Assembly: GCA_036009645.1 (NCBI GenBank)
Contig: DASYLH010000016.1
Coordinates: 2,165-66,164, forward strand
Reading direction: 5' to 3'
DNA: 64,000 nt
Source of the DNA: Conexibacter sp.
GTDB taxonomy: Bacteria > Actinomycetota > Thermoleophilia > Solirubrobacterales > Solirubrobacteraceae
Shown: positions 1,547 to 62,336 of the stretch, piece by piece
Numbering within the stretch: the first letter of the stretch is position 1
How the letters are laid out: every line of letters begins with the position of its first letter
The notes under the pieces: model-generated
What the model saw: the letters and a program-made list of their open reading frames with translations, nothing else
What the model was told of the DNA's origin: nothing
Database searches by the model: none
Made by a program: the position numbers and the translations under genes

Positions 1547-2718
1547 GGCGTCGTCACGAACGCGACTCTGAGCGCGCCCCACTGGTCGCCCGGTATGTAG
1601 ATGCCGGAGAACATCGATGCGCCCGCGTCGGTGATCGTCGCCGGGATCGTGCCGTAGTCGCGCGCGGAGCCGTTCACCGTTGGGCTGCCGGGGACGAGGT
1701 CGAGCATGATGCCGCGCACCGGCGCGATCTGCGTGCAGTCGCCGCCTGAGAAGGCGAAGATCGCGCGTGAGGATCTGCCGTTGAGCTCGATCTCGGGGTC
1801 CGTGACCGAGATGTCGATCCCGTGCCCTCTGTAGAGGAAGCGCACCGTGCCCTGCCCGAGCAGGTCTGCGCTGCCGCTGACCGGGTCGTACCAGCTGCCC
1901 GCCTTCAGCCCGAAGCCGAACGAGTAGACGAGTCTCGCGCTGTTGCCCGGCACGGTCTCCAAAGGCCCGGTGGTCGCGCCGTTGGAGGCGGTTGCGCCCT
2001 CGCCGCTGGCGACGTACTGGATGAACGACTCGCGTGGACGCCACGTGAGCGTCGCGCTCGCGACGTCGAGTGCGCCCGCCGGTCGCGCGAGCGGGGCGGG
2101 GGCGGCAGGGATCGTGCCGCTGGAGAAGCCGGGCGTGCAGCCGGGCGGCGTGGTTCCCCCGCCACCGCCGCCCGTGCCGTCGCCGGTACCCCCGCCCGTG
2201 CCGGGGCCGGCACCGCCGCTGGCGCCGAGCACCACCGCGACCCGCAGGGTCCCCAGCACTCCCGTCGGCCGCTCCGCGAGCGCGAGGCGCATGCGCAGGA
2301 AGCGCGCGCCCGTGCGGGTGAGGCGCAGCGAGACGGGCTGCAGCCGCACGGCGCCGGTGGCGGCGTCGAGCGTCAGGCGTCGTCTCGGGACGTCGGCGCG
2401 CAGCAGCGTCCGCCGCCGCTCACCGCTGACGGCGCTCAGCACCGTCTGCCCGGCGCGCACCTCGGCGCGCCAGGCGGACAGCGTCACGCGGCCTGCGGAG
2501 GGGCCTCTGCCCGCCCTCAGCGTGACTCTCCCGCGCAGCGAGAGCGTGGCGCCGGTCCCGATCCGGCCGCTCACAGCGGGAAGGACGATCCGCCGCGCGA
2601 CCGCGACGCCCTGCGCCCGCAGACCGTCCCCGAGGGCACCGTCGGACGAGATGGTGGCGGCGCCGTGCGGTGCCGCCGAAGCGGCGAGCAGGGCGAGCGC
2701 GGTCGCGGCGGCGGGCAT
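1543..2718 (-). CDS. Secreted HtaA-domain heme-binding protein
   Basis: Signal peptide, Gly/Thr linker, C-terminal ATLTWRPRESFIQYV..GTVRFLYRGHGIDISVTDPEIEL typical of HtaA; iron-uptake context. Confidence 0.75.
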   Translation of the reverse strand: MPAAATALALLAASAAPHGAATISSDGALGDGLRAQGVAVARRIVLPAVSGRIGTGATLSLRGRVTLRAGRGPSAGRVTLSAWRAEVRAGQTVLSAVSGERRRTLLRADVPRRRLTLDAATGAVRLQPVSLRLTRTGARFLRMRLALAERPTGVLGTLRVAVVLGASGGAGPGTGGGTGDGTGGGGGGTTPPGCTPGFSSGTIPAAPAPLARPAGALDVASATLTWRPRESFIQYVASGEGATASNGATTGPLETVPGNSARLVYSFGFGLKAGSWYDPVSGSADLLGQGTVRFLYRGHGIDISVTDPEIELNGRSSRAIFAFSGGDCTQIAPVRGIMLDLVPGSPTVNGSARDYGTIPATITDAGASMFSGIYIPGDQWGALRVAFVTTP

Positions 2719-2720
2719 CG

Positions 2721-3701
2721 CTACAGCACCCGCACGCGGATCGCCTGGTCGCTGCCCGCTCTCAGCAGGTACACCCCGCGCACGCCCTTCTTCTGACCGT
2801 CGGCGAGCTTGATGCGAACCGTGCGTGCGCGCACCGAACCGGTCGCGACGACGGCCTTGCCCTTCGTGCTCAGCAGCGAGATCGCGTGACGCTTGCCGCG
2901 ATCGGCGAAGGGCGCCTTTCTCAGCAGGGCGGTCTGCAGGATGGTCGTCGCGCCGGGGGCACCCTTGTCGCCCTTGGGACCCTGCGGGCCGCGCACTTCG
3001 TCCGGCTTCAGCTTGAGGCGCACCGCAAACGTCTCGGTGCCTCTGCTGGGCAGGTATCTCGCGCCGAAGAACGTGGTGTTGGCGGTCGTTCGAGCGAGCG
3101 CGCTGAGCGTGCGCGATCCGTCGGCCTTCAGCGTCACGACGGAGCTGGTGAGGTCGAAGTCAAAGATCGGGCCGATCTCGGCGCCGTAGCTTCTTCTGTC
3201 GATCTGTCCGGTGGCGGCGAGCGCAGCCTTCGTGCCGTCGAGCGTCAGCGTCGGGTTGACGATCGTCTGCGGCAGCAGGCCGAAGCCCGGGTGGACGGTG
3301 AAGCTGAGCGTGCCGCCGAGCTGCACGCTGCCGACGCCGGTGTACTCGTCGTACGTGCCGCCGCTGGCGGGGAATCCGAGCTTGTACACCTCGCCGAGGC
3401 CGCGCACGCTGTCTCTCGTGATCTCCGTGACGCTTGCGCCGGTGGGGTCGACGATCGTCGCGCTGCCGCTGACGGAGACGCTGCCGTCGGAGGCCGGTCC
3501 TGCGACCGCGACTCTGTTCGTCACGAAGCCGAGCCAGGTGCGCTGCCCCAGCGTGTCGTTCGCGCTGGAGTCGTAGTAGTTGTCCATGGACCAGTCGAAG
3601 CCGCCGCCGGTGACGGTGGCTGCTGAGGCCGGGACGGCGGCGGCGCCGAGCGCGAGCGCCGCGAGTGCGACGGCGCGCAGGCCGGAGAGCGAAGGGGTCA
3701 T
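2721..3701 (-). CDS. Secreted HtaA-like protein with short collagen-like linker
   Basis: Signal peptide, GGGFDWSMDNYY..GSVQLGGTLSF..NPTLTLDG, then GPQGPKGDKGAPG and a basic C-terminal domain. Confidence 0.6.
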   Translation of the reverse strand: MTPSLSGLRAVALAALALGAAAVPASAATVTGGGFDWSMDNYYDSSANDTLGQRTWLGFVTNRVAVAGPASDGSVSVSGSATIVDPTGASVTEITRDSVRGLGEVYKLGFPASGGTYDEYTGVGSVQLGGTLSFTVHPGFGLLPQTIVNPTLTLDGTKAALAATGQIDRRSYGAEIGPIFDFDLTSSVVTLKADGSRTLSALARTTANTTFFGARYLPSRGTETFAVRLKLKPDEVRGPQGPKGDKGAPGATTILQTALLRKAPFADRGKRHAISLLSTKGKAVVATGSVRARTVRIKLADGQKKGVRGVYLLRAGSDQAIRVRVL

Positions 3702-4525
3702 GGTGAGACGAGGTCCTTTCGTGGATGCGTATCGAGCGGGGGAGAAGGCGTGTGGAGCCAGCCGACGCGCAGTGCGGTGCGGCCGTCGTCGTCGCGCTCA
3801 AGCGCGGCGTCAACGCGCCACACCGCGGCGATGCGCGCCGCGTCGAGCACGTCGTGCGCGAGGCCGTCGGCGACGGTGCGGCCGTCGGCCATCACGACGA
3901 CGCGGTCGGCGACGGCCGCGGCGAGCGCGAGGTCGTGCACCACCAGCACCACGGCGAGCCCCTCATCGGCGAGGCCGCGCAGCAGCCGTGCGACGCCGGC
4001 GGCGGCGCCGAGGTCGAGGTGCGAGGTCGGCTCGTCGGCGATCAGCGCGGGCGCCTCTTGCGCGAGCGCGACGGCGATCTGTACGCGTTGCAGCTCGCCG
4101 CCGGAGAGCGTCGTCAGCATGCGGTCCTCGAACGTCTCGACGCCGGCGCGCGCGATCGCTCGCGCGACCGCGTCGTGGTCTCTGCGCGTCATCCGCTGCA
4201 GCGGGCCGACGTGGGGGGAGCGGCCGATTCGCACCGCGTCGCGGACGGTGAGGCCGGCGGGCACGGGTGGGCGCTGTGGCACGAACGCGCGCAGGCGCGC
4301 GAGCCGGCGCGGGCGCAGGTCGCCCAGCTCGTCCTCGCCCCAGCGCACGGTGCCGCCCGCGAGCCGCTGCAACCCGGCGACGGCGCGCGCGAGCGTGGAC
4401 TTGCCGGCACCGTTGGGGCCGACGACGGCGACCAGCTCGCCGGCTGCGACGTGCAGGTCGGCGCCGTGCAGGATCGGCGTGCCGCCGATCTCGACGCGCA
4501 CGTCCCGGGCATGGAGCAGGGTCAT
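3698..4525 (-). CDS. Iron/heme ABC transporter ATP-binding protein (FecE/HmuV family)
   Basis: GPNGAGKST, LSGGELQRV, LIADEPTSHLD; start ATG 4525 overlaps the permease stop. Confidence 0.92.
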   Translation of the reverse strand: MTLLHARDVRVEIGGTPILHGADLHVAAGELVAVVGPNGAGKSTLARAVAGLQRLAGGTVRWGEDELGDLRPRRLARLRAFVPQRPPVPAGLTVRDAVRIGRSPHVGPLQRMTRRDHDAVARAIARAGVETFEDRMLTTLSGGELQRVQIAVALAQEAPALIADEPTSHLDLGAAAGVARLLRGLADEGLAVVLVVHDLALAAAVADRVVVMADGRTVADGLAHDVLDAARIAAVWRVDAALERDDDGRTALRVGWLHTPSPPLDTHPRKDLVSP

Positions 4526-5550
4526 GTCGCTCTCCGCAGCAGCCACAAGAACACCGGCACGCCGAGCACGACCATGAACGGCCCGACCGGCAGCTCGATC
4601 GGCGCGATGATCGTGCGCGCGAGCGTGTCGCCGGCGAGCAGCAGCAGCGCGCCGCACAGCCCGGAGACGGGCACGACGAACCAATTGCCTGCGCTGCGCG
4701 AGGCGAGCCGCACGACGTGCGGGATGAACAGTCCGACGAACGTAATGAGCCCGGCGATCGCCGCCGCCGAGGCGGCCAGCAGCGCCGCGGCGACGCCCGC
4801 GCCGAGCCGGATCGTGCGCGGCCGCACGCCGAGCGACGCGGCGACGTCGTCGCCGAGCGCGAGGCGGTCGAGCGGGCGCACGAGCACCACCGCGAGCGCG
4901 AAGCCGACGGCAAGGTACGGCCACACGACCTCCAGCTGGCTCCAGCCGCTCGTCGTGAGGCCGCCGACAAGGAAGAAGATCGCCGACGGCACGCGCTCCG
5001 GGTACCACGCCATCAGCGCGCTCATCGCGGCCGAGAAGAGCGCGCTGATCGCGATCCCCGCGAGGATCAGGCGGGCGATCCCGCCCGGGTTCGGCCCCGC
5101 CCAGGCGACGACGAACACGAGCGCCGCCGCCAGCAGCCCGAACAGCAGCGCGCCGGCCGGCAGCAGCGCGACCGAGCTGGGGAAGATCAGCAGGATCAGG
5201 ATCGCGCCGAAGCCCGCGCCGCCGGTGACGCCGATCACGTCCGGCGAGGCGAGCGGGTTCGCGAGGGCGCCCTGCAGCAGCGCGCCGGCGACGCCGAGCG
5301 CCGCGCCGACCGCCATCGCCTCGACCGTGCGCGGCAGCCGCAGGTCGAGCACGATCTGCCGCAGCGGTCCTGTCTCGGCGCGACCGAGCAGCGCGTCGAT
5401 CACTCTCGACAGCGGGATATGGACGGCGCCGAGTGTGAGCGACGCCGCCACCGCAGCCGCCAGCAGCGCCGTGGCGACGGCGACGACGAGCGCCTGACGG
5501 ACGCTCAAGCGCGCCACGCGGGGCGCGGCTGCGATGTCGGCGACGCTCAC
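4522..5550 (-). CDS. FecCD-family ABC permease
   Basis: LRLPRTVEAMAVGAALGVAGALLQGALANPLASPDVIG; ELPVG motif. Confidence 0.93.
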   Translation of the reverse strand: MSVADIAAAPRVARLSVRQALVVAVATALLAAAVAASLTLGAVHIPLSRVIDALLGRAETGPLRQIVLDLRLPRTVEAMAVGAALGVAGALLQGALANPLASPDVIGVTGGAGFGAILILLIFPSSVALLPAGALLFGLLAAALVFVVAWAGPNPGGIARLILAGIAISALFSAAMSALMAWYPERVPSAIFFLVGGLTTSGWSQLEVVWPYLAVGFALAVVLVRPLDRLALGDDVAASLGVRPRTIRLGAGVAAALLAASAAAIAGLITFVGLFIPHVVRLASRSAGNWFVVPVSGLCGALLLLAGDTLARTIIAPIELPVGPFMVVLGVPVFLWLLRRAT

Positions 5551-10453: not shown

Positions 10454-11862
10454 CCGCGGCGAGCGCTCCGAGCGTCGAGGAGCTGCGCGCGATCGACCTG
10501 TTCGACGGGCTCGACGACGAGCAGCTCGGCGTGTGGGCGGCCGCGGCGCAGACGCGCGACATCGCGCCCGGCGAGGTGCTGGTCGAGCAGGACGCGCCGT
10601 CGAGAGGGCTGTGGCTGCTGCTGGAGGGCGAGGTCGAGTCGCTCGTCGTGGCGGACGGGCGCAGCGAGCGGATCGGCCATCAGGAGGCGCCGACGTGGAT
10701 GGGCGCGATCGCGGCGCTGACGGAGGCGCCGGTCGGCGTCGAGATTCGCGCGATGACCCCGGGGCGGGTCGCGCTCGTGCCGCCCGAGCGGTTCGTCGAA
10801 CTGGCGCTCGCGACGCCGTCGGTGCACCGCAAGGTGATGCAGCGCGTTGGTCCCGTGCTGAGCCGGCTGAGCGCGCGAGAGCAGCACCGCGAGCGGCTCG
10901 CCGCGCTCGGCACGATGGCGGCTGGGCTCGCGCACGAGCTGAACAACCCGGCGGCGGCCGCGAACCGCGCCGCGAGCGACCTGATCGACGCGATTAAGGC
11001 GATCGCTAAGGCGCTCGACGCGTTCGTGGAAGCGGGCGTCGAGCGCGAGGACGCCGAGCAGCTGCTGGCGCTCCAGCGGCAGGCGCTCGACCACGCCGCC
11101 ACCTGCACGGCACTCGACGCGCTGGACGCCGCCGACGAGGAGGACGCGATGCGCGACCGCCTCGAGGACCTCGGCGTCGCCGACGCATGGAGACTTGCGG
11201 AGCCGCTCGCGCGCGCCCGCGTCGACGAGGCGTGGCTGTCCGAGGTCGCCCGGCTCGCCGGCCCGGCGACCGACGCGGCGCTGCGCTGGGTCGCCGCGTC
11301 GCTCACCGCGCGCACGCTCGCGCAGGAGCTGAAGGACTCGACAGAGCGCATGGGCGCGCTCGTCGGCGCGGTCAAGTCGTATGCGTACATGGACCGCGGT
11401 GGGCTCGTCGAGGCTGACGTGCACGAGGGATTGGAGACCACCCTCGTCGTGCTCGGCCACAAGCTCAAGCACACGCGCATCGAGATCGTCCGCGACTACG
11501 ACCGCTCGCTGCCGAAGGTCACCGTCCACGGCTCGGAGCTGAACCAGGTGTGGACGAACCTGCTCGACAACGCGATCGACGCGCTCGGGGAGTCGGGCAC
11601 GATCACGCTCCGCACCTCGCTCGACGGGCCGTGCATCCGCGTTGACATCGCCGACGACGGGCCAGGCATCCCGGAGGCGCTGCGCGCACGCGTGCTGGAG
11701 CCGTTCTTCACCACGAAGGATGCTGGGCGCGGGACCGGGCTTGGGCTCGACACCGCGCGTCGCATCGTCGAGGAGCGCCACACCGGCACGCTTGGCTTCG
11801 ACAGCGGGCCCCAGGGGACGACGTTCCACGTGTGGCTGCCGCTGGAGGGCACCGCGCGCTGA
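10450..11862 (+). CDS. Cyclic-nucleotide-binding-domain histidine kinase
   Basis: N-terminal cNMP fold, AHELNNPAAA H-box, NQVWTNLLDNAIDA, DDGPGI, FFTTKDAGRGTGLGL; ATGA overlap with previous gene. Confidence 0.92.
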   Translation: MTAASAPSVEELRAIDLFDGLDDEQLGVWAAAAQTRDIAPGEVLVEQDAPSRGLWLLLEGEVESLVVADGRSERIGHQEAPTWMGAIAALTEAPVGVEIRAMTPGRVALVPPERFVELALATPSVHRKVMQRVGPVLSRLSAREQHRERLAALGTMAAGLAHELNNPAAAANRAASDLIDAIKAIAKALDAFVEAGVEREDAEQLLALQRQALDHAATCTALDALDAADEEDAMRDRLEDLGVADAWRLAEPLARARVDEAWLSEVARLAGPATDAALRWVAASLTARTLAQELKDSTERMGALVGAVKSYAYMDRGGLVEADVHEGLETTLVVLGHKLKHTRIEIVRDYDRSLPKVTVHGSELNQVWTNLLDNAIDALGESGTITLRTSLDGPCIRVDIADDGPGIPEALRARVLEPFFTTKDAGRGTGLGLDTARRIVEERHTGTLGFDSGPQGTTFHVWLPLEGTAR

Positions 11863-11886
11863 GCGCGCGGCGGCGGGTCCGTCAGT

Positions 11887-12078
11887 TCAGGCGGCGACCG
11901 GCTGCACGCCGCGGGCCTGCAGCGCGTCGACCGAGACGACGCTCACTTCAAGCGTGCGGCAGTTCTCGACGAGTCGCAGCGACCTGTCCTGCGGCAGCTC
12001 GCCGACGACGCCGAGCAGCGTCGTGCCGTCGGTCAGGTAGGAGCCGACGGCGAACAGGTTGGGCATGCGAGTGGACAT
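11887..12078 (-). CDS. Small hypothetical protein (~63 aa)
   Basis: MSTRMPNLFAVGSYLTDGTTLLGVVGEL..LVENCRTLEVSVV; protein-like composition, downstream of XRE gene. Confidence 0.6.
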   Translation of the reverse strand: MSTRMPNLFAVGSYLTDGTTLLGVVGELPQDRSLRLVENCRTLEVSVVSVDALQARGVQPVAA

Positions 12079-12131
12079 GCGAGCAAGCCTACGGTCGCGC
12101 AGTCGCGCCGCCATCAGGGGCGAGCCGCGAG

Positions 12132-12386
12132 CTACGTCGGTGTTTTCCCGTCGTCAACTTCGTAGAGCTCTGCTACGCGCACGCCGAGCGCGTCAGCGAG
12201 GCGCACGACGGTCGTGGAGCGCGGGTCCTTGTTCGCACGCTCGATCTCGCTGAGGTGCTTGGGGTGGATGTCGGCGGCATAGGCGAGCGCCTCCTGCGAC
12301 AGCTCGCGCTCGCGGCGCAGATGCCGGATCGCGCCGGCGAGGGCGAGCAGCTCAGGGGCGGGTGGCGCCAACCGTCTGCGCGTCAT
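12132..12386 (-). CDS. XRE-family HTH regulator (paralogue 1)
   Basis: AIRHLRRERELSQEALAYAADIHPKHLSEIERANKDPRSTTVVRLADALGV; start set at ATG 12386. Confidence 0.9.
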   Translation of the reverse strand: MTRRRLAPPAPELLALAGAIRHLRRERELSQEALAYAADIHPKHLSEIERANKDPRSTTVVRLADALGVRVAELYEVDDGKTPT

Positions 12387-12414
12387 CGAGCCATATCTCG
12401 CTGTGCGAACAACA

Positions 12415-12428
12415 CGAACATATGTTCG
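12415..12428. promoter_or_regulatory. LexA (SOS) box, Gram-positive/actinobacterial type
   Basis: Perfect CGAAC-ATAT-GTTCG upstream of XRE paralogue 1, within a larger TGTGCGAAC..GTTCGCACA inverted repeat (12402-12432). Confidence 0.8.
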
Positions 12429-12458
12429 CACACGACGCAAGTCCGTGCGCCGGTTGTG

Positions 12459-12698
12459 TCAGGACTCGAGCCGCTCGTCAAATGCTCTGAACAGCTCGTT
12501 CGAGCTCAGCTCCAACGCGTCCGCGAGCTTCAGGACCGTCGTGAGGCGTGGGTCCTTGTTCGCCCGCTCGATCTCGCCCACGTGCTTCGCGCTCAGGCCC
12601 GCTTCGTCGGCGAGTGCCTCCTGTGAAAGGTCGCGGTCGCGGCGCGCTTTTCGCAGGGTGCGACCAAAGGCAAGCAACTGTGGTGAGGCGGTACGCAT
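12459..12698 (-). CDS. XRE-family HTH regulator (paralogue 2)
   Basis: FGRTLRKARRDRDLSQEALADEAGLSAKHVGEIERANKDPRLTTVLKLADALEL. Confidence 0.92.
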   Translation of the reverse strand: MRTASPQLLAFGRTLRKARRDRDLSQEALADEAGLSAKHVGEIERANKDPRLTTVLKLADALELSSNELFRAFDERLES

Positions 12699-12794
12699 CC
12701 GTACCGTGAAACCTTCACCACCGATGACGGTTCAGCCACCGTCTCCTGACGGTAATTCTCCACCGGAAGACGGCTTTCTGGCTATAGTCACCCT

Positions 12795-12955
12795 TCCGGC
12801 GTCTTGGCACCCCAGCTTCGCTGACGTGTGACTCCCCCTCACCACGTCAGCACGGCAGGCAGGGGACCGGGTGCCGGTTTCCCCTCACCGAGCTTGGCTC
12901 GGAGCGGGTTGTGCGAGCGCCCCGGGAGCTCCCAGGCCCCGGGGCGTTTGCTGTT
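12795..12955 (+). ncRNA. Candidate structured small RNA (four consecutive hairpins)
   Basis: TATAGT -10-like hexamer at 12783-12788; stems 12820-12851, 12861-12885, 12888-12902, 12918-12946, last followed by TTTGCTGTT. Ends are estimated. Confidence 0.45.
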
Positions 12956-13066
12956 CTCGTTGGCCTCATGGTCTGTGTGCGAACCGGCTCGGGCCGGTCG
13001 CTTGCATTGCGGCGACTATCGCGATATATCTTTACGCATCGAGATATTCCAACGTAAGGAGCCGAG

Positions 13067-29214: not shown

Positions 29215-30321
29215 TCAGCTGCCAGCGTGCGGTGGCGTGGCGGGTAGTTGCACCGTGACGCAGAGCCCGCCGGCGGCGCGGGGGGTGAGGGTGAGGGTTC
29301 CGTCGTGTGCTTGGGTGATGCTTTTGACGATTGCCAGGCCGAGGCCGACGCCTGCGTGGTCGGTGCGTATGCGTTTGGAGCCGCGCTGAAACGGCTCGAC
29401 AAGCGTGGAAGCCAACTGTGGGGTGAGCGTCGCGCCGGTGTTCTCGACGGTGAGCACCACACCCTTGGGGTGAACGCTGGTCGTGACCCACACGGTGCCC
29501 TGTTCAGGCAGGTTGTGGACGATCGCGTTGTGCAAGAGGTTCGTTGTCATCTGCAGCAGGAGGGCGGGTGAGCCGATGGTGGGGGTCAGTTCGCCGGAGG
29601 TCTCGATGGTGGCGCCGCGTTCCTCTGCGAGGGGGAGGAGCGTTTCCGTGGCTTCTTCGGCTATGAGTGACAGGTCGGCGTGTTCTCGGACGAAGGACCG
29701 CTGGTCGGCGCGGCTGAGCAGGAGCAACGCTTCGGTGAGGTCGATCGCTCGGGTGTTGACGAAGTGGAGGCGCTCGACAAGTTCGTCGTTGCCGCGGCTT
29801 TGATCGTTGCGGGCCACGTCGAGGAGCGTCTGCGTGATCGCCAGCGGGGTGCGCAGCTCATGGGAGGCATTGGCTGCGAATCGCTGCTGTTCGGCGACGC
29901 GTGCCTCGAGTCGCGCAAGCATGGTGTCGAAGGCGTCGGCGAGCTCGCGGAACTCGTCGTTGCGGCCTTCCAACGCGATCCGGTGGGAGAGCGATCCGGT
30001 CGCGGCGACGCGTGTGGCGTCGGAGATCCGTTCCAAGGGAGCGAGCATCCGTCCGGCCAGAAGCCACCCCCCGACGAGACCGAACACCAGGAGGAAGGCC
30101 AGCACCACGACTGCCGCCGTGCCGAAGACGCCTGGGCCAAAGTTGGTGGGGTTGAAGACGCGCGGGAAGTTGGAGAACCTGGGAACGAGGCTGCTGGCGG
30201 GATAGTCTCGCAAGAGGAACACCCAGACGGCCGCGAGCATCAGGGCGCCAGCGATCATGAGGAAGCCGGCGTAGCTGAGGGTGAGCTTGAGGCGGACGCT
30301 CAAGCCCGGGGCCCTATCCAC
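29215..30321 (-). CDS. vanS: VanS sensor histidine kinase (actinobacterial type)
   Basis: GTG start; LSVRLKLTLSYAGF, HAMP, FAANASHELRTPLAI, NLLHNAIVHN, GVGLGLAI; adjacent to vanR. Confidence 0.9.
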   Translation of the reverse strand: MDRAPGLSVRLKLTLSYAGFLMIAGALMLAAVWVFLLRDYPASSLVPRFSNFPRVFNPTNFGPGVFGTAAVVVLAFLLVFGLVGGWLLAGRMLAPLERISDATRVAATGSLSHRIALEGRNDEFRELADAFDTMLARLEARVAEQQRFAANASHELRTPLAITQTLLDVARNDQSRGNDELVERLHFVNTRAIDLTEALLLLSRADQRSFVREHADLSLIAEEATETLLPLAEERGATIETSGELTPTIGSPALLLQMTTNLLHNAIVHNLPEQGTVWVTTSVHPKGVVLTVENTGATLTPQLASTLVEPFQRGSKRIRTDHAGVGLGLAIVKSITQAHDGTLTLTPRAAGGLCVTVQLPATPPHAGS

Positions 30322-31000
30322 CGTCCCCTCCGGTGCCGGATGCTGTGTCGATGCGGTACCCGGCGCCGGCCACGGTGGCGATGATCCATGGTTCACCGAG
30401 GCGTCTGCGCAGTGCCGAGACGGTGATGCGCACGGCGTTGGTGAACGGGTTTGCGTTCTCGTCCCACGCCCGATTCAGTAACTCTTCGGCGCTGACGACA
30501 CCCCCTTCGGCAGCGACGAGAACTTCGAGCACTGCGAACTGCTTCCGCGTCAGCGCGACGTAGCGGCCGTCGCGGTAGACCTCTCGGCGGAACGGATCCA
30601 GCCGCAGGCCTGCGATCTCTTGCACAGGCGGCCGGTTGTGGGCGCGCCGGCGGTCGAGCGCCCTGAGACGGAGCACCAGCTCCTGGAGTTCGAAGGGCTT
30701 CGTGAGGTAGTCGTCGGCGCCGAGCCCGAACCCGGAGGCCTTGTCGTCGAGCCGGTCGGCGGCGGTCAGCATGAGGATCGGCATGCCGCTGCCGGAGGCG
30801 ACGATGTGTTTGGCGATCTCGTCACCGGAGGGTCCGGGGATGTCTCGGTCGAGGACGGCGATGTCGTAGGCGTTGACGCTCAGCAGCTCCAGAGCGGTGT
30901 CGCCGTCACCGGCGATGTCTGCCGCGATCGCTTCCAGGCGTAGGCCATCGCGGATGGCTTCGGCCATGTAGGGCTCATCCTCGACGATCAAGACGCGCAT
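30314..31000 (-). CDS. vanR: VanR response regulator
   Basis: MRVLIVEDEPYMAEAIRDGLRLEAIAADIAGDG..LDRDIPGPSGDEIA..WDENANPFTNAVRITVSALRRRLG; TAGCAT -10 six nt before ATG suggests a leaderless mRNA. Confidence 0.92.
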   Translation of the reverse strand: MRVLIVEDEPYMAEAIRDGLRLEAIAADIAGDGDTALELLSVNAYDIAVLDRDIPGPSGDEIAKHIVASGSGMPILMLTAADRLDDKASGFGLGADDYLTKPFELQELVLRLRALDRRRAHNRPPVQEIAGLRLDPFRREVYRDGRYVALTRKQFAVLEVLVAAEGGVVSAEELLNRAWDENANPFTNAVRITVSALRRRLGEPWIIATVAGAGYRIDTASGTGGDGG

Positions 31001-31022
31001 GCTCCGATGCTACGAGCTGGCG

Positions 31023-31061
31023 CATATCGTCGGCGTATCGAAAACCACATACGTGCTGGCA
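31023..31061 (+). promoter_or_regulatory. van promoter element (putative VanR box), copy 1
   Basis: CATATCGTCGGCGTATCGAAAACCATACGTGCTGGCAAC; near-identical copy upstream of vanH. Confidence 0.75.
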
Positions 31062-31163
31062 ACGCCACGCTGCCTTGACTGGCGGCGTGACCTGCAGCGA
31101 ACCGGCACGAACGGCACCCCGCCGTACCCGATCGACCATCGTCGTCGGCTTCGCCGGTGCGGC

Positions 31164-32228
31164 ATGAGCAAGACGCCGCAGGCTCGCCGCGGGACCGCAA
31201 CCCTGTACGGCCGTCGCCGTCGCCGCGTGCTGCTCGGCGCGGTACTGGCCCTCGCCCTCGCTGCCACGGCGTTCGCGGCTCCCCACCACCTGCTCAACGG
31301 CGAGGAGCGCAGCTACCTGTCGACGGACGGCTGGCCGCTTCACGGACAAGGGGCGTACGTGCTCGACGACGGCCGGCCGGCGGGGAGCCCGCACCAGCAG
31401 CCGGTCCCGATCGCCAGCGTGGCAAAGGTGATGACCGCGTACATCGTGCTCAAGCACCACCCGCTGCGGGCGGACGACAGCGGCCCGCGATTCGTGGTCG
31501 GTCAGGACGATGTCGTGGACACCGAGGCGAGGCGCCGCGACGGCCAGTCGGTTGTCGATGTCCGCGCCGGCGAGCAGCTCACCGAGCGGGACGCCCTCAT
31601 GGCGATCCTGTTGCCGTCCGCGAACAACGTCGCGGTGCTCGTCGCCCGTCAGGTCTCCGGCAGCATCGCTTCCTTCGTGGCGGAGATGAACGACACGGCG
31701 CGCGCGTTGGGAATGTCCCACACGACCTACACCGATCCAAGCGGATACGACGTCGGCACGGTCTCGACAGCCCTCGATCAGCTCCGTCTGGCGCGGGTGG
31801 TGGCCAACGACGAGACGCTGGCGGCCATGATGGCCACCCGCACCTACTGGCTGCCGGTGGCCGGTGAGGTGACCAACACCAACGCCCTGCTCGGCCATGA
31901 CGGGTTCGTCGGCATGAAGACCGGCTCACACGAGGCGGCCGGCGGCTGCTTGATGTTCCGGGTCGTGTGGCCCACCGAGAGCGGCAGCCGATCCCTGATC
32001 GGCGTGGTGCTCGGGCAGCGAGGAGACAACCTGATCACCGCGGGACTGGGTGCGGCCGAGCAGCTGGTCGACCGCCTGGCGCCGGACGCGGCACCCACTG
32101 GAGCATCCAGCATGCCCGCTGCAGCCGGCCGCCTCAGCGTGGCCCAGCCGGGGCTCGCGACACCACCCGGAACATATCGTCCGCATATCGAAAACCACAT
32201 ACGCGCTGGCAACACCCCGCTCCCTTGA
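31164..32228 (+). CDS. D-alanyl-D-alanine carboxypeptidase (peptidase S11)
   Basis: SxxK (IASVAK), SxN (PSANN), KTG (GMKTG); N-terminal membrane anchor/signal. Confidence 0.88.
   Translation: MSKTPQARRGTATLYGRRRRRVLLGAVLALALAATAFAAPHHLLNGEERSYLSTDGWPLHGQGAYVLDDGRPAGSPHQQPVPIASVAKVMTAYIVLKHHPLRADDSGPRFVVGQDDVVDTEARRRDGQSVVDVRAGEQLTERDALMAILLPSANNVAVLVARQVSGSIASFVAEMNDTARALGMSHTTYTDPSGYDVGTVSTALDQLRLARVVANDETLAAMMATRTYWLPVAGEVTNTNALLGHDGFVGMKTGSHEAAGGCLMFRVVWPTESGSRSLIGVVLGQRGDNLITAGLGAAEQLVDRLAPDAAPTGASSMPAAAGRLSVAQPGLATPPGTYRPHIENHIRAGNTPLP
32173..32213 (+). promoter_or_regulatory. van promoter element (putative VanR box), copy 2
   Basis: CATATCGTCCGCATATCGAAAACCACATACGCGCTGGCAAC, ending ~24 bp upstream of the vanH start. 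Confidence 0.78.
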
Positions 32229-32236
32229 ATGGAGAC

Positions 32237-33262
32237 ATGGTCCGCAGCGAACCAGCACGAACCGCGGGCCGCCGCACCCGATCGCTGGCATCCGTCCCGA
32301 CGATGGGGATCACGATCTATGGGTGCGGACAGGACGAGGCCGCCGTGTTCCGAGAGATGGCGCAAGGCCTTGGCGTCGCGCCGACGATCACCGAGGCAGC
32401 GGTGTCTGAAGGCAACGTCGGACTGGCATTCGGGAACCGATGCATCAGCGTCGGTCACAAGACGCAAGTCACGAATGCCACGCTTCTTGCGCTCAGCGAA
32501 GCCGGCGTGACGTATATCTCCACACGAAGCGTCGGATGCAACCACGTCGACGTGGACTACGCGGAGAGCGTGGGCATCTCCGTAGAGACCGTCGCCTACT
32601 CGCCCGACAGCGTGGCGGACTACACGCTGATGCTGATGCTGATGGCGGTGCGGAATGCCAAATCCGTCATCAGGCGTGCAGACGTTCATGACTACCGATT
32701 GAGCAATGTACGCGGGAAAGAGCTGCGCGACCTGACCGTCGGGGTGATCGGAACGGGACGCATCGGCAGCGCGGTCATGGACCGGCTGCGAGGGTTTGGC
32801 TGCCGAACGCTCGCCTATGACACTCGGCCCAGGACCTCGGCCGACTACGTCACTCTCGGTGCATTGCTCGAGCGGAGCGACATCGTGACGCTCCATGCGC
32901 CACTCACCGCGGATACGCACCATCTCCTCGATCGCCGCCGTATCGAGCGGATGAAGCACAGCGCGGTGATCGTCAACACTGGACGCGGCGCGCTTCTCGA
33001 TACCGAGGCGCTTGTCTCAGCCTTGGAAAGCGGCAGATTGGGCGGCGCGGCGCTGGACGTCCTCGAAGGAGAGGATGGGATCTTCTACGCCGACTGCAGC
33101 GACAAGCCCATCGAAAGCCAACTGCTGCTGCGGTTGCACAAGCTGTCGAACGTGCTGATCAGTCCGCACAGCGCCTACTACACAGACCACGCCCTGATGG
33201 ACACCGTGCAGAACTCCCTTACCAACTGCCTGAAGTTTGCGAGCCGCGATCACCATGAATAA
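32237..33262 (+). CDS. vanH: VanH D-lactate dehydrogenase
   Basis: GGAG RBS; GITIYGCGQDEA, YISTRSVGCNH, YSPDSVADYTLMLMLMAVR, GTGRIG, ISPHSAYYT. Confidence 0.95.
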   Translation: MVRSEPARTAGRRTRSLASVPTMGITIYGCGQDEAAVFREMAQGLGVAPTITEAAVSEGNVGLAFGNRCISVGHKTQVTNATLLALSEAGVTYISTRSVGCNHVDVDYAESVGISVETVAYSPDSVADYTLMLMLMAVRNAKSVIRRADVHDYRLSNVRGKELRDLTVGVIGTGRIGSAVMDRLRGFGCRTLAYDTRPRTSADYVTLGALLERSDIVTLHAPLTADTHHLLDRRRIERMKHSAVIVNTGRGALLDTEALVSALESGRLGGAALDVLEGEDGIFYADCSDKPIESQLLLRLHKLSNVLISPHSAYYTDHALMDTVQNSLTNCLKFASRDHHE

Positions 33263-34295
33263 GTTGAAGGTTGGGATCGTCTTCGGTGGCTGCTCCGAAG
33301 AGCATCCGATCTCCGTCAAGTCGGCGCAAGAGGTCGCAAGACACCTCGATATCGCCAAGTACGAACCGTTCTACGTCGGGATCACGACGAGCGGTGCGTG
33401 GAAGCTTTGTGACGGCCCTGACGCAAATTGGGAAGACGGAAGTTGCCGTCCGGCCGTCCTGTCACCGGACAGAAGCGTCCACGGACTGCTCGTCCTGGAA
33501 GAGGGAAGATACGAGACGATCAGCCTCGACGTAGTGTTGCCCATCCTGCACGGCAAGCTCGGCGAAGACGGCGCGATGCAGGGTTTGTTGGAGCTCTCCG
33601 GCATTCCCTATGCAGGCTGCGACATCCAAAGCTCCGCCCTGTGCATGGACAAGTCCCTGACGTACATGGTCGCCACAGCCGCGGGAATCGCTACGCCGAG
33701 TTTCTGGACCGTCGCGGCGAACGAGAGCATCGATCCCGACCAGCTCACCTATCCCGTCTTCGTGAAGCCGGCCCGCTCGGGGTCGTCCTTCGGCGTCACC
33801 AAGGTTTCCCACAGAGAAGCGCTCCAGAGCGCGGTGCAGACCGCACGGCAATACGACTCGAAGGTCGTGATCGAGGAAGCTGTCACCGGCAGCGAGGTCG
33901 GATGTGCCCTCCTGGGGAACGACCTGGACCTGTCTGCCGGCGAGGTCGATCAGATCGCCTTGTCTGATGGCTTTTTCAGGATCCATCAGGAACGCGAGCC
34001 CGAACAGGGCTCCGACAACGCGACGGTGATCGTCCCCGCGAACATCTCGGCGGACTCACGGTCGCTGGTGCAGGAGACCGCCAAGGCCATCTATCGCGCC
34101 TTGGGATGCAGCGGGCTCTCGCGGGTGGACATGTTCCTCACCGAGGATGGACAGGTCGTGCTCAACGAGGTCAACACGTTGCCCGGGATGACGTCATACA
34201 GCCGCTACCCGAGGATGATGGCCGCGGCAGGACTGCCCTTTGCGGACGTGATCGACCGGATCGTGGCGTTGACGCTGACGGGGACGCGCCGATGA
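33255..34295 (+). CDS. vanA: D-alanine--D-lactate ligase (VanA type)
   Basis: GGCSEEHPISVKSA, KPARSGSSFGV, GFFRIHQE (His typical of D-Ala-D-Lac ligases), NEVNTLPGMTSYSRYPRM. Confidence 0.95.
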   Translation: MNKLKVGIVFGGCSEEHPISVKSAQEVARHLDIAKYEPFYVGITTSGAWKLCDGPDANWEDGSCRPAVLSPDRSVHGLLVLEEGRYETISLDVVLPILHGKLGEDGAMQGLLELSGIPYAGCDIQSSALCMDKSLTYMVATAAGIATPSFWTVAANESIDPDQLTYPVFVKPARSGSSFGVTKVSHREALQSAVQTARQYDSKVVIEEAVTGSEVGCALLGNDLDLSAGEVDQIALSDGFFRIHQEREPEQGSDNATVIVPANISADSRSLVQETAKAIYRALGCSGLSRVDMFLTEDGQVVLNEVNTLPGMTSYSRYPRMMAAAGLPFADVIDRIVALTLTGTRR

Positions 34296-34616
34296 AGGAC
34301 GACTTCGCCTTCGTCGACGAGCGCGTTCCCGGGTCACAGCCGGGGCAGCACCGTCGACCTGACGCTCTATCGATTGGCCACCGGTGAGCTTGCTTCGATG
34401 GGCGGTGATTACGACCTGATGGATCCGATCTCCCACCGTGGGGCGAAGGACATCACGCAGGTCGAAGCGAGAAACCGCGAGGACCTTTGCTCGGTCATGG
34501 AGGCTTGCGGCTTCAGCTCGTACGAGTGCGAGTGGTGGCACTACACGCTGAAGGCCGAGCCCTATCCCGACACCTACTTCGATTTCCCCATCACGCATGC
34601 GCTTCTCGACATCTGA
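34292..34616 (+). pseudogene. vanX: vanX D,D-dipeptidase with ~100-codon internal deletion and frameshift
   Basis: 5' MKDDFAFVDERVPG joins directly, in another frame, to GHSRGSTVDLTL..EWWHYTL..YFDFPI at ~34332. Confidence 0.88.
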
Positions 34617-35949
34617 GCTGACGACCCATCTGGGCGGTGAGCTGGTTGGGCCCGATGTCAGCATCGAAGGGGCGAGCATCGACTCGCGGACGATCCGGCC
34701 GGGGCAGCTCTACGCCCCCATCGTGGCCGAGCGCGACGGCCACGCCTTCATCCCGGCAGCGCTCGAGGCGGGCGCGCCGGCCTACCTGACCGCGCAGGAG
34801 CCGGTGGGCGGGACGGCCATCCGTGTTCGCGACACCGCCGCCGCACTGTTGAACCTCGGGGGATTCGCCCGCAGTCGGGTCGGCGGCGCGATCGGCATCA
34901 CAGGGTCGGTGGGCAAGACCACCACCAAGGACCTCCTGGCCGGCTGTCTGGCGTCGACGTTCCGCACCGCCGCGAGCGAGCGTTCCTTCAACAACGAGCT
35001 GGGCCTCCCTCTGACGCTGCTCAACGCGTCGGACGCTGCGCGGTGGGTGGTCCTCGAGATGGGAGTCCGGCGTGTGGGGGACATCGAGCGGCTGGCCGAG
35101 GTCGCACGTCCCGACGTAGGCATCGTGACCAGCGTCGATATGGCGCACGTGGAGTACCTCGGTGACCTCAACGGCGTGGCCCGCGCCAAAGGGGAGCTCG
35201 TGGCGGCCTTGCCGGCATCGGGTCTCGCGGTGTTGAACTTCGACGACCCCCGGGTCCGAGAGATGGCGTCGCTCAGCGCGTGTCCCGTGCTGGGGTATGC
35301 GGTGGGCGCCGACGCCGAAGTGCGGGCGGACGACGTCACGCTCGACCGGGACCTGCGCGCACGGTTCCGCCTGTCGTCGCCGTGGGGGCAGACCGAGGTC
35401 CGGCTGGCGTTGCACGGCGTGCAGCACGTCGCCAACGCGCTCGCCGCCGCGACGGTCGCGCTGTGGTGTGGGGTCCCCATCGAGACCGTCGCCGCGGCAC
35501 TAACGGTGAGCCAGGGCTCGCCCTGGCGCATGGAGGTTCATCACGTGCCCGGCGGCCCCGTCCTGGTGGTCGACTGTTTCAACGCGATCCCCGCGTCGGC
35601 CGAGGCGGCCGTGCGCTCGCTGGCCGCGTTGCCGGGCAAACGCAAGCTGGCAGTCCTCGGGCTGATGGCCGAGCTGGGGGACCAGAGCGAGTCCGAGCAT
35701 CGCCGGATCGCCCTCGTGGCGGAGGAACTCGGGATCGAGGTGGTGGGATACAAGACCGGGCTCTATGGCAAGGCGCACGTGACGGGCGTCGACGAGGCTG
35801 TCGCCTTGTTGCGCACGATGGGCTCGGGTGACGCAGCGCTTGTCAAGGGCAGCCGCGTGGCGCGACTCGAAGACGTGGTGCACGCCTATGGGAAGGCCGA
35901 GGGCGCGCCGTCGCTCAGCTCCGGCGCCGGGGCGGCGGCGGGTGCGTAA
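34597..35949 (+). CDS. murF: MurF (UDP-MurNAc-tripeptide--dipeptide ligase) within the van operon
   Basis: GITGSVGKTTTKD, SFNNELGLPLTL, VLEMG, LGLMAELG, LVKGSR. Confidence 0.9.
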   Translation: MRFSTSELTTHLGGELVGPDVSIEGASIDSRTIRPGQLYAPIVAERDGHAFIPAALEAGAPAYLTAQEPVGGTAIRVRDTAAALLNLGGFARSRVGGAIGITGSVGKTTTKDLLAGCLASTFRTAASERSFNNELGLPLTLLNASDAARWVVLEMGVRRVGDIERLAEVARPDVGIVTSVDMAHVEYLGDLNGVARAKGELVAALPASGLAVLNFDDPRVREMASLSACPVLGYAVGADAEVRADDVTLDRDLRARFRLSSPWGQTEVRLALHGVQHVANALAAATVALWCGVPIETVAAALTVSQGSPWRMEVHHVPGGPVLVVDCFNAIPASAEAAVRSLAALPGKRKLAVLGLMAELGDQSESEHRRIALVAEELGIEVVGYKTGLYGKAHVTGVDEAVALLRTMGSGDAALVKGSRVARLEDVVHAYGKAEGAPSLSSGAGAAAGA

Positions 35950-41308: not shown

Positions 41309-42150
41309 TCAGGTGCTCGAGAGCTGTCCGCTCGCGGCACCGTCCGCGGGGTCCTCGCGGGCAAGGCCGAGGCTGTCGAGCAGGCGACGGACGGCCTCGG
41401 ACCAGCCGATGCTTGCCGCCAGCTGTCTGCGGACGTCGGCGGCACGTTGGAACGCGGCGGTCGGGTCGACGAGCTTCTCGTATATCGCGTCGCCCCAGAT
41501 CTCGGCGATCTCCGTCACGTCGCCGGACACAGGCAGGATCTCTCGCGGCGTGCTGCGCTCCCCGTCCGAGACCATCTGGTGGAGAAGCCGCGCCAACCCG
41601 CTCTCGCGACTGACGAGGACGGGGATGCCGGCGGCGATCGCCTCCCATGCGACGAGTCCGAAGCCCTCGTGGCGGGATGGCATGATGAGCACGCGCGACT
41701 GCCAGATGTCGCGACGCAGGGCGTCCTCGTCGGACACGTATGGCCGCAGCACGATCTGCGTCGCCGGCGCCGCGATCGCGTCCAGGCGCGCACGCACGTC
41801 GTCGGCGCTCGCGTCCGGCACACCGCGGACGACGAGCACCGGGGGGTCGCCCGGGTCTCCCGCAAAGCGGGTGACGGCCCGCGTCACGGCCTCGGCGGCG
41901 ATGTCAATTCCCTTCGTGGCCATGTCCTCCGCGCGCCCGAGCAGGAGGATCTGCCGCCGCGCTGGTGGCTTCTCCGGCGTGGCCACGTCGTCCCAGTCGC
42001 GCAAGCCCGGACAGATCTCGACGACCGGCGGTGCGGCGTGGCGGAACCCTCGCATCGCATCGCTGATCGACTCCGTGAGCAGCGGGCCGACGCCTGCGAC
42101 GAGGTCGGCGGACATCGCCAGCTCGACCTCGAGCTGCTGGCGGGCCTCAC
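41309..42150 (-). pseudogene. 5'-truncated glycosyltransferase family 4 (GT-B) gene
   Basis: ADLVAGVGPLL..KGIDIAA..VLIMPSRHEGFGLVAWEAIAAGIPVLVSRESG; the upstream frame closes at TGA 42218-42220 inside the capA tail, so the N-terminal domain is missing. 5' boundary approximate. Confidence 0.65.
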
Positions 42151-51730: not shown

Positions 51731-52636
51731 TCAACGCTCCGCGCCGCGCGACGCGTACCAGGCGATCGTCTGCTCCAGCGACCGCTCCCAGTCGGTGAAG
51801 CGGAAGCCGTCGATCGACGCGAGCAGCGGCTCGGTGCTCGCCACCAGCTCGGTCCCCTCGTCCTCGCCGGAGCGCATCGGCAGGTGCCGCACCCCGGCGC
51901 GGTTGCCGGTCGCGTCGTTGATCGTGCGGGCGAGCTGGTTGACGGTGACCGGCACGCCGCGGCCGCAATCGGGGGCGAGGAGGCCGCCGGGGGCGCGCTC
52001 GACGCGCATGTAGCGCACGGTCATGCGTGCTGCATCGCGGACGTAGATCAGGTCGACGACCTGGTCACCGTCGCCGTAGATCTCCAGCGGCTCGCCGCGC
52101 AGCGCTTGGCGCACGAATGTCGGCACGAGCTTGCGCACCGGCGCGTGCGCCTGATGCGGCCCGAACGCGTTGAAGTAGCGCAGCGAGCACAGCTGCGTGC
52201 TCGACGCGTCGCGGTCGTACAGCGCGCCGAGCTGCTCGGCGGCGCCCTTGGTGATCGTGTACGCGTTCAGCCACACGTTCGGCTTGGAGGCGTGGAACAC
52301 GCGCGCGACGCCCTCGGCGATCGCGGTCTCGAACACGTTGATCGAGCCGAGCACGTTCACCTGCACCGCCAGGGTGGGGACATCGTCGAGCTCGGAGGTG
52401 CCGAGCTTGCCGGCCAGGTGGTAGACCTCGTCGGCGCCTCGGAGGTGGGCGCCAAGCGCTTGGCGGTCGAGGATGTCGCCCTCGACGAACTCGACGGCGC
52501 CGGCGCCGAAGCGCGCGTCGCAGGCGGTCTGTGAGCCGGCGACGTCCAGGACGACGACGTCGTGGTCGTCATCGACCAGTTCCTGGGCGATCGCTCCTCC
52601 CAAGAATCCACTTCCGCCCAGAACGATGGTTCGCAT
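51731..52636 (-). CDS. NAD-dependent epimerase/dehydratase
   Basis: GGSGFLG, YHLAG, YTITK (YxxxK), LRYFNAFGP, IYGDGDQ. Confidence 0.9.
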   Translation of the reverse strand: MRTIVLGGSGFLGGAIAQELVDDDHDVVVLDVAGSQTACDARFGAGAVEFVEGDILDRQALGAHLRGADEVYHLAGKLGTSELDDVPTLAVQVNVLGSINVFETAIAEGVARVFHASKPNVWLNAYTITKGAAEQLGALYDRDASSTQLCSLRYFNAFGPHQAHAPVRKLVPTFVRQALRGEPLEIYGDGDQVVDLIYVRDAARMTVRYMRVERAPGGLLAPDCGRGVPVTVNQLARTINDATGNRAGVRHLPMRSGEDEGTELVASTEPLLASIDGFRFTDWERSLEQTIAWYASRGAER

Positions 52637-62182: not shown

Positions 62183-62198
62183 CGCGCGAAGTCCGGAG

Positions 62199-62276
62199 AA
62201 ACTGGCTGATCTGATGTGCGAAAATGGCTGATGGAGAAAGGGTAAATGGCTAACAGAAAATGCGCAAGTGGCTAAT
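62199..62276. repeat. Four direct repeats (A/T/C)AA(A/C/G)TGGCT(G/A)A(T/C) with exact 22-bp period
   Basis: TGGCT cores at 62203, 62225, 62247 and 62269 in an AT-rich patch upstream of the AAA_14 gene. Confidence 0.85.
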
Positions 62277-62336
62277 GCAGCTCGGTCGGCCAGGAGCTCG
62301 GCGCATCGCACGCCACCGCTGTGAGAACGTGCCGGC

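Follow-up and report, generated by a model that had tools for sequence, protein, structure and literature searches.

XRE1, a small regulator of the XRE family encoded in a 64,000-nucleotide stretch of Conexibacter DNA (contig DASYLH010000016.1; hereafter the window), very probably belongs to the known SOS regulon as a new regulator, as judged by comparative sequence analysis. The gene (12132–12386, minus strand, ATG at 12386) encodes an 84-aa, single-domain HTH_3 regulator and lies under an SOS box, the perfect palindrome CGAACATATGTTCG (12415–12428, minus strand), which is kept across orthologous loci and is the same box that is found at SOS genes. Directly ahead of it stands a paralogue, XRE2 (12459–12698, minus strand), a 79-aa, single-domain HTH_3 regulator that has no LexA box and appears not to be gated by DNA damage. 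Control of XRE1 by LexA is well supported by comparative evidence and is judged highly likely. The explanation as a whole, in which XRE1 belongs to the SOS regulon, has a promoter embedded in its operator, and serves as a second-tier regulator, is considered probable.

The box lies 28 nucleotides (nt) 5′ of the XRE1 ATG, inside the 72-nt gap that follows the XRE2 stop codon, and is the sole perfect CGAAC-N4-GTTCG in the window. Dinucleotide shuffles predict 0.13 copies, with at least one copy occurring in 13 of 100 shuffles; a single copy is thus not significant by itself, and significance rests on conservation. In 470 kb of Conexibacter-like DNA, 27 perfect boxes are found, of which 26 lie 5′ of XRE1 orthologues and one lies in an XRE1-derived cassette, with none elsewhere. 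The box and its flanks, TGCGAACATRYGTTCGTG, are unchanged 5′ of XRE1 in 26 of the 27 XRE1-type genes of related genomes, and a 20-nt block, TGCGAACAT[AG][TC]GTTCGTGT, is unchanged even where the remaining intergenic DNA can no longer be aligned. Across 26 loci, the box varies at positions 8 and 9 only (AT, AC, or GT), both of which fall outside the predicted −10 element described below. Four loci harbor a second, weaker box 37–48 bp 5′. A third half-site, TGTTCGCAC (12403–12411, minus strand), is located 4 nt 3′ of the box but is kept in the window’s clade only; its absence from loci L015 and L016 rules it out as part of the core element.

The published LexA consensus of actinobacteria is tCGAAC-N4-GNNCGa (PMC9380542). 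One Rubrobacter strain has been reported to be devoid of lexA (PMC4148983), such that the host motif needed a direct check. Neither the window nor the first 97 loci yielded lexA, recA, or any other SOS gene in tblastn and Pfam searches. The 18-mer TGCGAACATRYGTTCGTG was scanned against 185,579 species genomes, and at least 120 stretches matched (L106–L225). Among the matches listed, an SOS open reading frame (ORF) starts at the terminal GTG of this cassette in 72 of 121, encoding a Y-family polymerase (45), an Rv2578c-like radical-SAM protein (20), DnaE2 (3), an ImuB-like protein (3), or RecN (1). The taxa represented among these listed matches include a Conexibacter sp. (L141), Conexibacteraceae (L205), Solirubrobacter, Baekduia, Patulibacter, Thermoleophilaceae, and Gaiellaceae, and more widely Nocardia, Mycobacterium, Kribbella, Micromonospora, and Acidimicrobiia.

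L141, a contig of a Conexibacter metagenome-assembled genome (MAG), encodes LexA itself, with the domains and the catalytic Ser and Lys of a cleavable repressor (LexA_DNA_bind 7e-24, Peptidase_S24 3e-33, motifs GESM and ATVKRF). A perfect box, CGAACACATGTTCG, is present ~35 nt 5′ of the lexA start, and L141 also has an imuB-like gene that opens at the 18-nt cassette. The recA gene of Solirubrobacteraceae is preceded by CGAACAGCTGTTCC at a distance of ~60 nt. On the basis of the identical box and flanks at SOS genes, and of a Conexibacter lexA with a box of its own, the palindrome is the SOS operator of this lineage, i.e., its LexA operator, and not an operator private to the XREs. An earlier, sequence-only reading of the window had described a perfect box between the two XRE genes, 5′ of XRE1 and a 63-aa ORF, and had equated it with the LexA consensus. 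The first statement is confirmed at 12415–12428, and the second is borne out by the same motif at Conexibacter lexA and at SOS genes in Solirubrobacterales and the wider phylum.

The predicted core of the XRE1 promoter falls within the box (12415–12430, minus strand) and reads TG-C-GAACAT. It would comprise an extended −10 element, with the TG at 12430–12429 and the hexamer GAACAT at 12427–12422 (minus strand), and, seven bases beyond the −10, a +1 that coincides with the final G of the box (12415). These assignments are proposed because the flanks are invariant, one clade has only GTG starts for XRE1, and SOS genes start at the same GTG. In about nine species, XRE1 can start only at the GTG that overlaps the box or at an in-frame ATG in the spacer, and in the window’s clade the ATG lies 28 nt further downstream of the box. 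The GTG start overlapping the box in one clade implies a leaderless mRNA. A scan for the sigma-70 consensus, which demands a −35 element, found no promoter. With the predicted −10 and start site inside the operator, a bound LexA dimer would occlude both.

It is proposed that XRE1, together with the co-directional 63-aa gene where this is present, belongs to the SOS regulon of Conexibacter and is repressed by LexA. A LexA dimer seated on CGAACATATGTTCG would cover the positions of the predicted −10 and start site and thereby keep XRE1 repressed. Upon DNA damage, RecA-stimulated self-cleavage of LexA would free the XRE1 promoter, and the cell would produce an 84-aa, controller-protein-like helix-turn-helix regulator. 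XRE2, which lacks the box, would be expressed from a separate, deeply conserved control region common to a divergent small RNA. Most likely, XRE1 serves as a second tier of SOS regulation and acts on operators akin to the ones that XRE2 uses. Its prime candidate target would be the XRE2/small-RNA control region, on which it might act via competition or mixed dimers, although this step is speculative.

Several observations weigh against this proposal. The genome scan kept the TG and GTG flanks fixed by design, and the lexA of L141 belongs to a congeneric MAG of another Conexibacter species rather than to the window’s genome. In locus L032, a solitary XRE1-like gene (81% identical) has no box. 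Metatranscriptome contigs (three studies, of low depth and without direction) cover the 5′ part of XRE2 and the small RNA and are uninformative for XRE1.

Both XRE1 and XRE2 match Pfam HTH_3/HTH_31 with E values of 1e-11 to 1e-12 (HTH_31/HTH_3 at ~1e-11 for XRE1, HTH_3 at 2.4e-12 for XRE2). The two proteins are 56% identical across 70 aa and share the motifs LSQEALA and EIERANKDPR..TTV..LADAL, while their genes form a direct repeat of 173 nt with 71% identity. The helix-4 residues T59, V60, L63, A64, A66, and L67 are identical in the two paralogues. The start of the predicted recognition helix differs at four positions, reading HPKHLS in XRE1 and SAKHVG in XRE2. Together, these features would be in line with mixed dimers as well as with operators that are related without being the same.

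A profile built from both paralogues finds the restriction–modification (RM) controllers C.BclI (4e-13) and C.AhdI (5e-13) as the best solved relatives, with near full-length alignment. By analogy with these proteins, XRE1 probably works as a dimer. The description of two ~80-aa XREs with common motifs in the sequence-only reading therefore holds (79 and 84 aa, HTH_3/HTH_31, 56% identity), and the likeness to RM controllers that it had pointed out reappears in the top solved relatives (E ~4e-13). Homologues of XRE1 number 230 at E ≤ 1e-8, and their organism names, where given, are all Conexibacter or unclassified actinobacterial MAGs. Beyond the generic Pfam helix-turn-helix families, neither XRE matched a curated family of NCBIfam or PHROGs above cutoff. 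The PHROG search of both proteins returned generic families only, and phage records gave generic helix-turn-helix matches to XRE1 at ≤43% identity.

The 368-bp intergenic region between padR and XRE2 is conserved in all loci and harbors two further elements. The first is a candidate small RNA of ~165 nt (12795–12960, plus strand), divergent from XRE2 and preceded by an invariant −10, TATAGT, at 12783–12788. Its hairpin 1 (~12820–12852) displays the invariant loop UCCCCCUC, and its 3′ part contains a second C-rich stretch followed by a GC hairpin with a T tail (~12913–12960), the hairpin of which is also detected by a terminator scan. The predicted fold has a minimum free energy of −96.2 kcal/mol (z −4.8 versus shuffled sequence). 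RNAalifold yields 31 consensus pairs, 16 of which show compensatory changes. In the alignment, 90.8% of cells are paired, compared with 36–48% for slid partners, and the observed value is reached in none of 500 shuffles; the G-U pairs fit the plus strand. A role as a padR leader is ruled out, since the small RNA converges on the neighboring gene in the distant clade. The existence of this new candidate small RNA beside XRE2, which the sequence-only reading had missed, is strongly supported by these covariation and folding data.

Searches of the window and five related loci against Rfam gave no match for the small RNA, only chance-level matches and tRNAs, and the 6C model (RF01066) has no match at E ≤ 10 in the window or at E ≤ 1 in the five loci. 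6C RNA is characterized by two stem-loops, each with six or more cytosines in its loop. In the candidate small RNA, the loop of hairpin 1 reads GACUCCCCCUCAC in all loci. The second C-rich element forms a hairpin loop, CACCCCCC, in the distant clade and is unpaired or differently folded in the window’s clade.

The second element is the XRE2 leader, which doubles as a shared divergent control region (12699–12790, minus strand) and consists of the invariant block GACTATAGCCAGAAAGCCGTCTTCCGGTGGAGAATTACC and CCGTC...GGTGG repeats. In an alignment of 21 loci, this control block is near-invariant within otherwise diverged DNA. The GACTATAGCCAGAAAGCCGTCTTCCGGTGGAGAATTACC block has a single copy per locus, and the fetched loci contain no other. 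Its position between the small RNA −10 and the XRE2 start makes it a candidate operator region for the XRE proteins or a candidate leader element. The sequence GACTATAGCC 5′ of XRE2 was considered as a controller-protein binding site (C-box) and rejected: its TATAGTC half alone is conserved and its left half is variable, a pattern for which the small RNA’s −10, TATAGT, accounts. The 21-locus alignment shows no palindrome similar to the LexA box upstream of XRE2, despite the near-identical recognition region of the two proteins.

Action of XRE1 at the XRE2/small-RNA region by competition or mixed dimers, and functional cross-talk with XRE2 or the small RNA, can be put forward only tentatively. 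In one alternative, which is possible but on balance unlikely, XRE1 is controlled by LexA but is independent of XRE2 and the small RNA, and the tandem is a trace of gene duplication. The four differing positions at the start of the recognition helices are in keeping with such independence, as are single SOS-controlled XREs without a partner in other Solirubrobacterales. However, the order XRE2–box–XRE1 is kept in ~24 of 26 Conexibacter loci and, together with the small RNA block, in L101, a more distant metagenomic lineage. This persistence suggests selection on the arrangement, although the argument is weak because linkage can persist without function.

The partnerless arrangements take several forms. 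L036 (Conexibacter) has a single XRE, the box of which is flanked by the small-RNA promoter block on one side and an XRE2-type leader on the other. In two Solirubrobacterales MAGs, L108 and L199, a conserved leader of ~165 nt separates the SOS cassette from the gene for a different XRE, which is 42–49% identical to XRE1. These cases indicate that SOS-controlled XRE regulators are a recurring theme in Solirubrobacterales.

The sequence-only reading had gone further in suggesting a heterodimer-based repressor/antirepressor switch, which is hypothetical. An extended form of this idea is a two-tier relay in which LexA gates XRE1, XRE1 displaces or pairs with constitutive XRE2 at the XRE2/small-RNA control region, and the output of a 6C-like small RNA with a C-rich loop and of the 63-aa protein is thereby switched. 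Such a relay is rather unlikely. If true, it would carry the SOS signal into post-transcriptional regulation in Thermoleophilia and provide a mechanistic account of the reported link between 6C-type RNA and SOS.

Downstream of XRE1, at a distance of 53 nt, lies a gene for a 63-aa protein of an uncharacterized family (11887–12078, minus strand) with the motif F.PGSY.TDG..L..V...LRLVEDC.TLE. The count of 63 aa applies to a start at the second in-frame ATG; a start at 12114 would give 75 aa. The gene is probably co-transcribed with XRE1. The ORF noted in the sequence-only reading is a real gene, with 19 close homologues and, in a profile search, 59 representative clusters of 65–125-aa proteins with the invariant residues G12, Y14, T16, L21, E38, and C40. 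The protein has no match in Pfam, PHROG, or NCBIfam (PADLOC was not searched), and a fold search with its weak structure model (predicted local distance difference test score, pLDDT, of 70.6; predicted template modeling score, pTM, of 0.48) gave no match.

The small gene follows XRE1 in 4 of ~26 genome loci (L024, L026, L029, and L031), as well as in the window’s own lineage (metagenome contigs L002–L009) and in L101. The recurrence of the full arrangement in the distant L101 indicates that the trio is probably ancestral and that the small gene has been lost repeatedly. Conservation of the trio with its box, which the sequence-only reading had named as a check, is therefore partial: the XRE pair and the box are kept across the genus, but most orthologous loci lack the 63-aa gene.

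SOS-box toxin–antitoxin loci are known, e.g., dinJ-yafQ of E. coli and higBA of M. tuberculosis. XRE1 as antitoxin and the 63-aa protein as toxin could form an SOS-inducible, type II toxin–antitoxin-like pair, with XRE2 as an unrelated neighbor. A small-protein gene placed 53 nt behind one for a helix-turn-helix protein is an arrangement consistent with an operon, and repeated loss of the small gene while XRE1 is kept is the decay pattern expected of a toxin, which keeps this explanation alive at low probability. XRE1 also gives weak, sub-threshold matches to HipB/Y4mF antitoxin models, but these fall far below the curated cutoffs. The small protein, in turn, matches neither a toxin family in the databases searched nor a known fold, and L098 has family members without an adjacent XRE. 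Joint inheritance is likewise missing, given that the small gene stands behind XRE1 in only the four genome loci named above. XRE1 and its box are kept in ~20 species without the small gene, which argues that XRE1 has a function of its own. A toxin–antitoxin pair is thus very unlikely.

The host is Conexibacter, and named relatives that carry the locus include the cultured C. arvalis (DSM 23288), C. stalactiti (KCTC 39840), CPCC 205762, and CPCC 206217. An identical XRE2 is encoded on 16 contigs with conserved synteny, in which PadR and ABC-transporter genes flank the locus on one side and a histidine kinase with a cyclic-nucleotide (cNMP)-binding domain flanks it on the other. The window yielded neither an integrase gene nor any restriction or modification gene. 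The stand-alone chromosomal locus envisaged in the sequence-only reading agrees with both observations. In L101, the small RNA block, XRE2, the box, XRE1, and the small protein are all present, with XREs 69–71% identical to those of the window.

Some loci depart from this layout. In L013, L022, and L023, an insertion of 3.3–3.9 kb separates XRE2 from XRE1 and encodes a 116-aa XRE, a HipA_2-like kinase, a DUF3037 protein, and an IS1595 transposase. The L013 insertion (1787–4876) sits exactly between XRE2 and the XRE1 box and has a second LexA-like box, CGAACGAACGTTCT, at its edge. In L040 (7058–8878), a degraded XRE fragment (..LSEIERAN..) and an identical 20-nt SOS box precede the gene for a 549-aa methyltransferase of the Eco57I/N6_Mtase type, possibly a DNA-modification gene under SOS control. 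In L015/L036, L016/L037, and L038, the locus has tRNA genes next to it.

These departures raise the possibility that the pair is a decayed remnant, with no present role, of the immunity or controller region of a one-time prophage, integrative element, or RM cassette. The resemblance of the proteins to controller proteins, the use of the XRE2–XRE1 gap as an insertion hot spot, the adjoining tRNA genes, and the methyltransferase cassette of L040 all accord with such an origin. However, strong purifying selection acts on XRE1, XRE2, the box, the control block, and the small RNA in at least 26 species, in which they occupy the same chromosomal neighborhood. The phage matches of XRE1 are generic, as described above, and genes for integration, restriction, or modification are missing from the window. 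Decay without present function is consequently a highly improbable explanation.

It is more improbable still that the palindrome is the XREs’ own autoregulatory operator, a C-box analogue with LexA uninvolved, for although controller proteins such as C.BclI and C.AhdI, the closest solved relatives, bind palindromes directly 5′ of their own gene, the L040 methyltransferase with its XRE remnant carries the same 20-nt box, and the window’s clade has a third half-site, the identical 18-mer starts SOS genes in Nocardia, Mycobacterium, Kribbella, Micromonospora, and Acidimicrobiia, where no close homologue of the XRE pair was found (which essentially excludes a private XRE operator), the same box stands at Conexibacter lexA, XRE2 has no similar palindrome, an XRE1-like copy exists without the box, and a tandem GACT-N3-AGTC C-box architecture is absent upstream.

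The cassette also precedes genes of uncharacterized families. Among these are genes for ~100-aa proteins starting SIKGS.Y..F (L179, L190, L197, L206, and L221), for a PD-(D/E)XK_5 protein with a sub-threshold Phd/YefM-like C-terminus (L164, L143, L154, and L214), and for HTH_23-LAGLIDADG proteins (L189, L201, and L159). In many cassettes, the −10 is preceded at 16 nt by a GTC(C/G)G element that recalls the mycobacterial RecA-NDp motif. An apparent intein is found in the Rv2578c-like radical-SAM SOS genes of L114, L146, L147, L160, L163, L194, L218, and L223, as judged by a switch to C(L/M/A).GDT.(I/V)L..DGR... directly after the CxxxC motif. Two near-boxes were ruled out as regulatory, as they lie within coding sequence: one at 6966 in L043 and the one-mismatch box AGAACGATGGTTCG at 52620–52633 of the window. 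Read on the minus strand, the latter encodes MRTIVL, the opening residues of an ORF product with an N-terminus, MRTIVLGGSGFLGG, resembling that of an NAD-dependent epimerase.

A more remote XRE of 115 aa, whose helix-turn-helix part is 47% identical to XRE1, is encoded in Paenibacillus amylolyticus (L056, 5998–7634). It lies upstream of genes with DndB-like (DGQHR motif) and DndC-like products, as judged by eye. There, TTGAACATTTGTTCG (GAAC-N4-GTTC) 5′ of the dndB-like gene overlaps the −35 of a good −35/−10 pair, which may be coincidental.

Further features of the window lie outside the XRE genes. A GC palindrome, CGCGCGCTGAGCGCGCG (11853–11869, no strand assigned), lies where the small ORF and the histidine-kinase gene (end at 11862) converge and is likely a bidirectional transcript end. 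An AT-rich inverted repeat, TATCGCGATATATCTTTACGCATCGAGATA (13008–13050), just 5′ of padR and kept in related loci, is probably a PadR operator. Positions 29215–35949 hold a cell-wall gene cluster reminiscent of glycopeptide-resistance loci, with a HAMP/HisKA histidine kinase, an adjacent ORF (30314–31000), an S11 D-Ala-D-Ala carboxypeptidase, a D-Ala-D-Ala ligase, and a Mur ligase. Its GC content at third codon positions (0.81–0.88) is lower than that of the flanking genes. A “GT4-conflict” glycosyltransferase (PF20706, 2e-73) at 41309–42115 and an AAA_14/DUF4143 ATPase at 60941–62551 represent gene types that are frequent in conflict or defense islands.

Repair and mutagenesis genes make up most of what is known of the SOS regulons of Actinomycetota, and to our knowledge no regulator under direct LexA control has been characterized in the deep-branching Thermoleophilia. 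Regulators of this kind would extend the SOS response to genes without an SOS box. The locus offers a clean, conserved case with a clear predicted promoter design and is carried by cultured strains. The XRE pair is suited to the question of how duplicated regulators are rewired through one added operator, and the C-rich loops of the adjacent small RNA recall 6C RNA, which is reportedly involved in SOS. The 18-nt cassette of box plus leaderless GTG is a phylum-wide signature that can be used to list SOS genes, including those of uncharacterized families.

Among known systems, the RM controllers C.BclI (2b5a) and C.AhdI (1y7y) are similar to the XREs in consisting of a single HTH_3 domain of ~75–85 aa. 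They are dimeric, and their operator is located directly 5′ of the regulator’s own gene, as is the box at XRE1. In contrast to RM controllers, the XREs are not linked to endonuclease or methyltransferase genes in the window or in most loci, L040 being the only locus with a methyltransferase gene, which lies behind a derived cassette. No GACT-N3-AGTC C-box pair is present, the upstream palindrome is that of LexA, and there are two tandem paralogues instead of one gene. With neither RM genes in the window nor a C-box, the pair is controller-like by descent but not a controller by function.

SinR and SlrR of Bacillus subtilis are paralogous XRE regulators that form a heteromer with new specificity. 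They resemble the present pair in that one of two paralogous XREs is conditionally expressed, which is the logic behind the switch suggested in the sequence-only reading. However, their pairing is mediated by a C-terminal oligomerization domain of their own and they are not known to be under SOS control, whereas XRE1 and XRE2 are bare helix-turn-helix domains. DdrO of Deinococcus, the partner of IrrE, is likewise an XRE-family regulator tied to DNA damage and is found among the solved relatives of the XREs (E ~1e-6). DdrO is a master repressor that undergoes cleavage after DNA damage and is inactivated by its partner metalloprotease, whereas XRE1 is a LexA target and not a sensor, and no protease gene is linked to it. 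The locus also differs from prophage CI/Cro or integrative-element immunity regions in its conserved chromosomal synteny and in that no integrase was found in the window.

6C RNA has been tied to LexA and the SOS response in C. glutamicum, where it affects tolerance to mitomycin C and UV and where a LexA site lies ~50 bp upstream of its transcription start (PMC5014011). The candidate small RNA is similar to 6C RNA (RF01066) in its cytosine-rich hairpin loop sequence (invariant UCCCCCUC), its strong structure, and its proximity to a LexA operator, the box of L036 being located in its upstream region. However, 6C RNA measures ~80 nt versus ~165 nt here, and the likeness is limited to the C-rich loops, with no covariance-model match.

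A close parallel is provided by the LexA-repressed SOS genes of actinobacteria (dnaE2, imuB, Y-family polymerases, recN, and Rv2578c-type radical-SAM genes), whose operator and 18-nt cassette are identical to those of XRE1. A search of the literature yielded no description of an SOS-controlled XRE pair of this kind. XRE1 is similar to these genes in the position of its operator at the promoter and start codon and, in part of the genus, in its leaderless GTG. In contrast to their products, which are repair and mutagenesis enzymes, XRE1 is a small transcription factor, encoded directly behind a paralogue that appears to be ungated.

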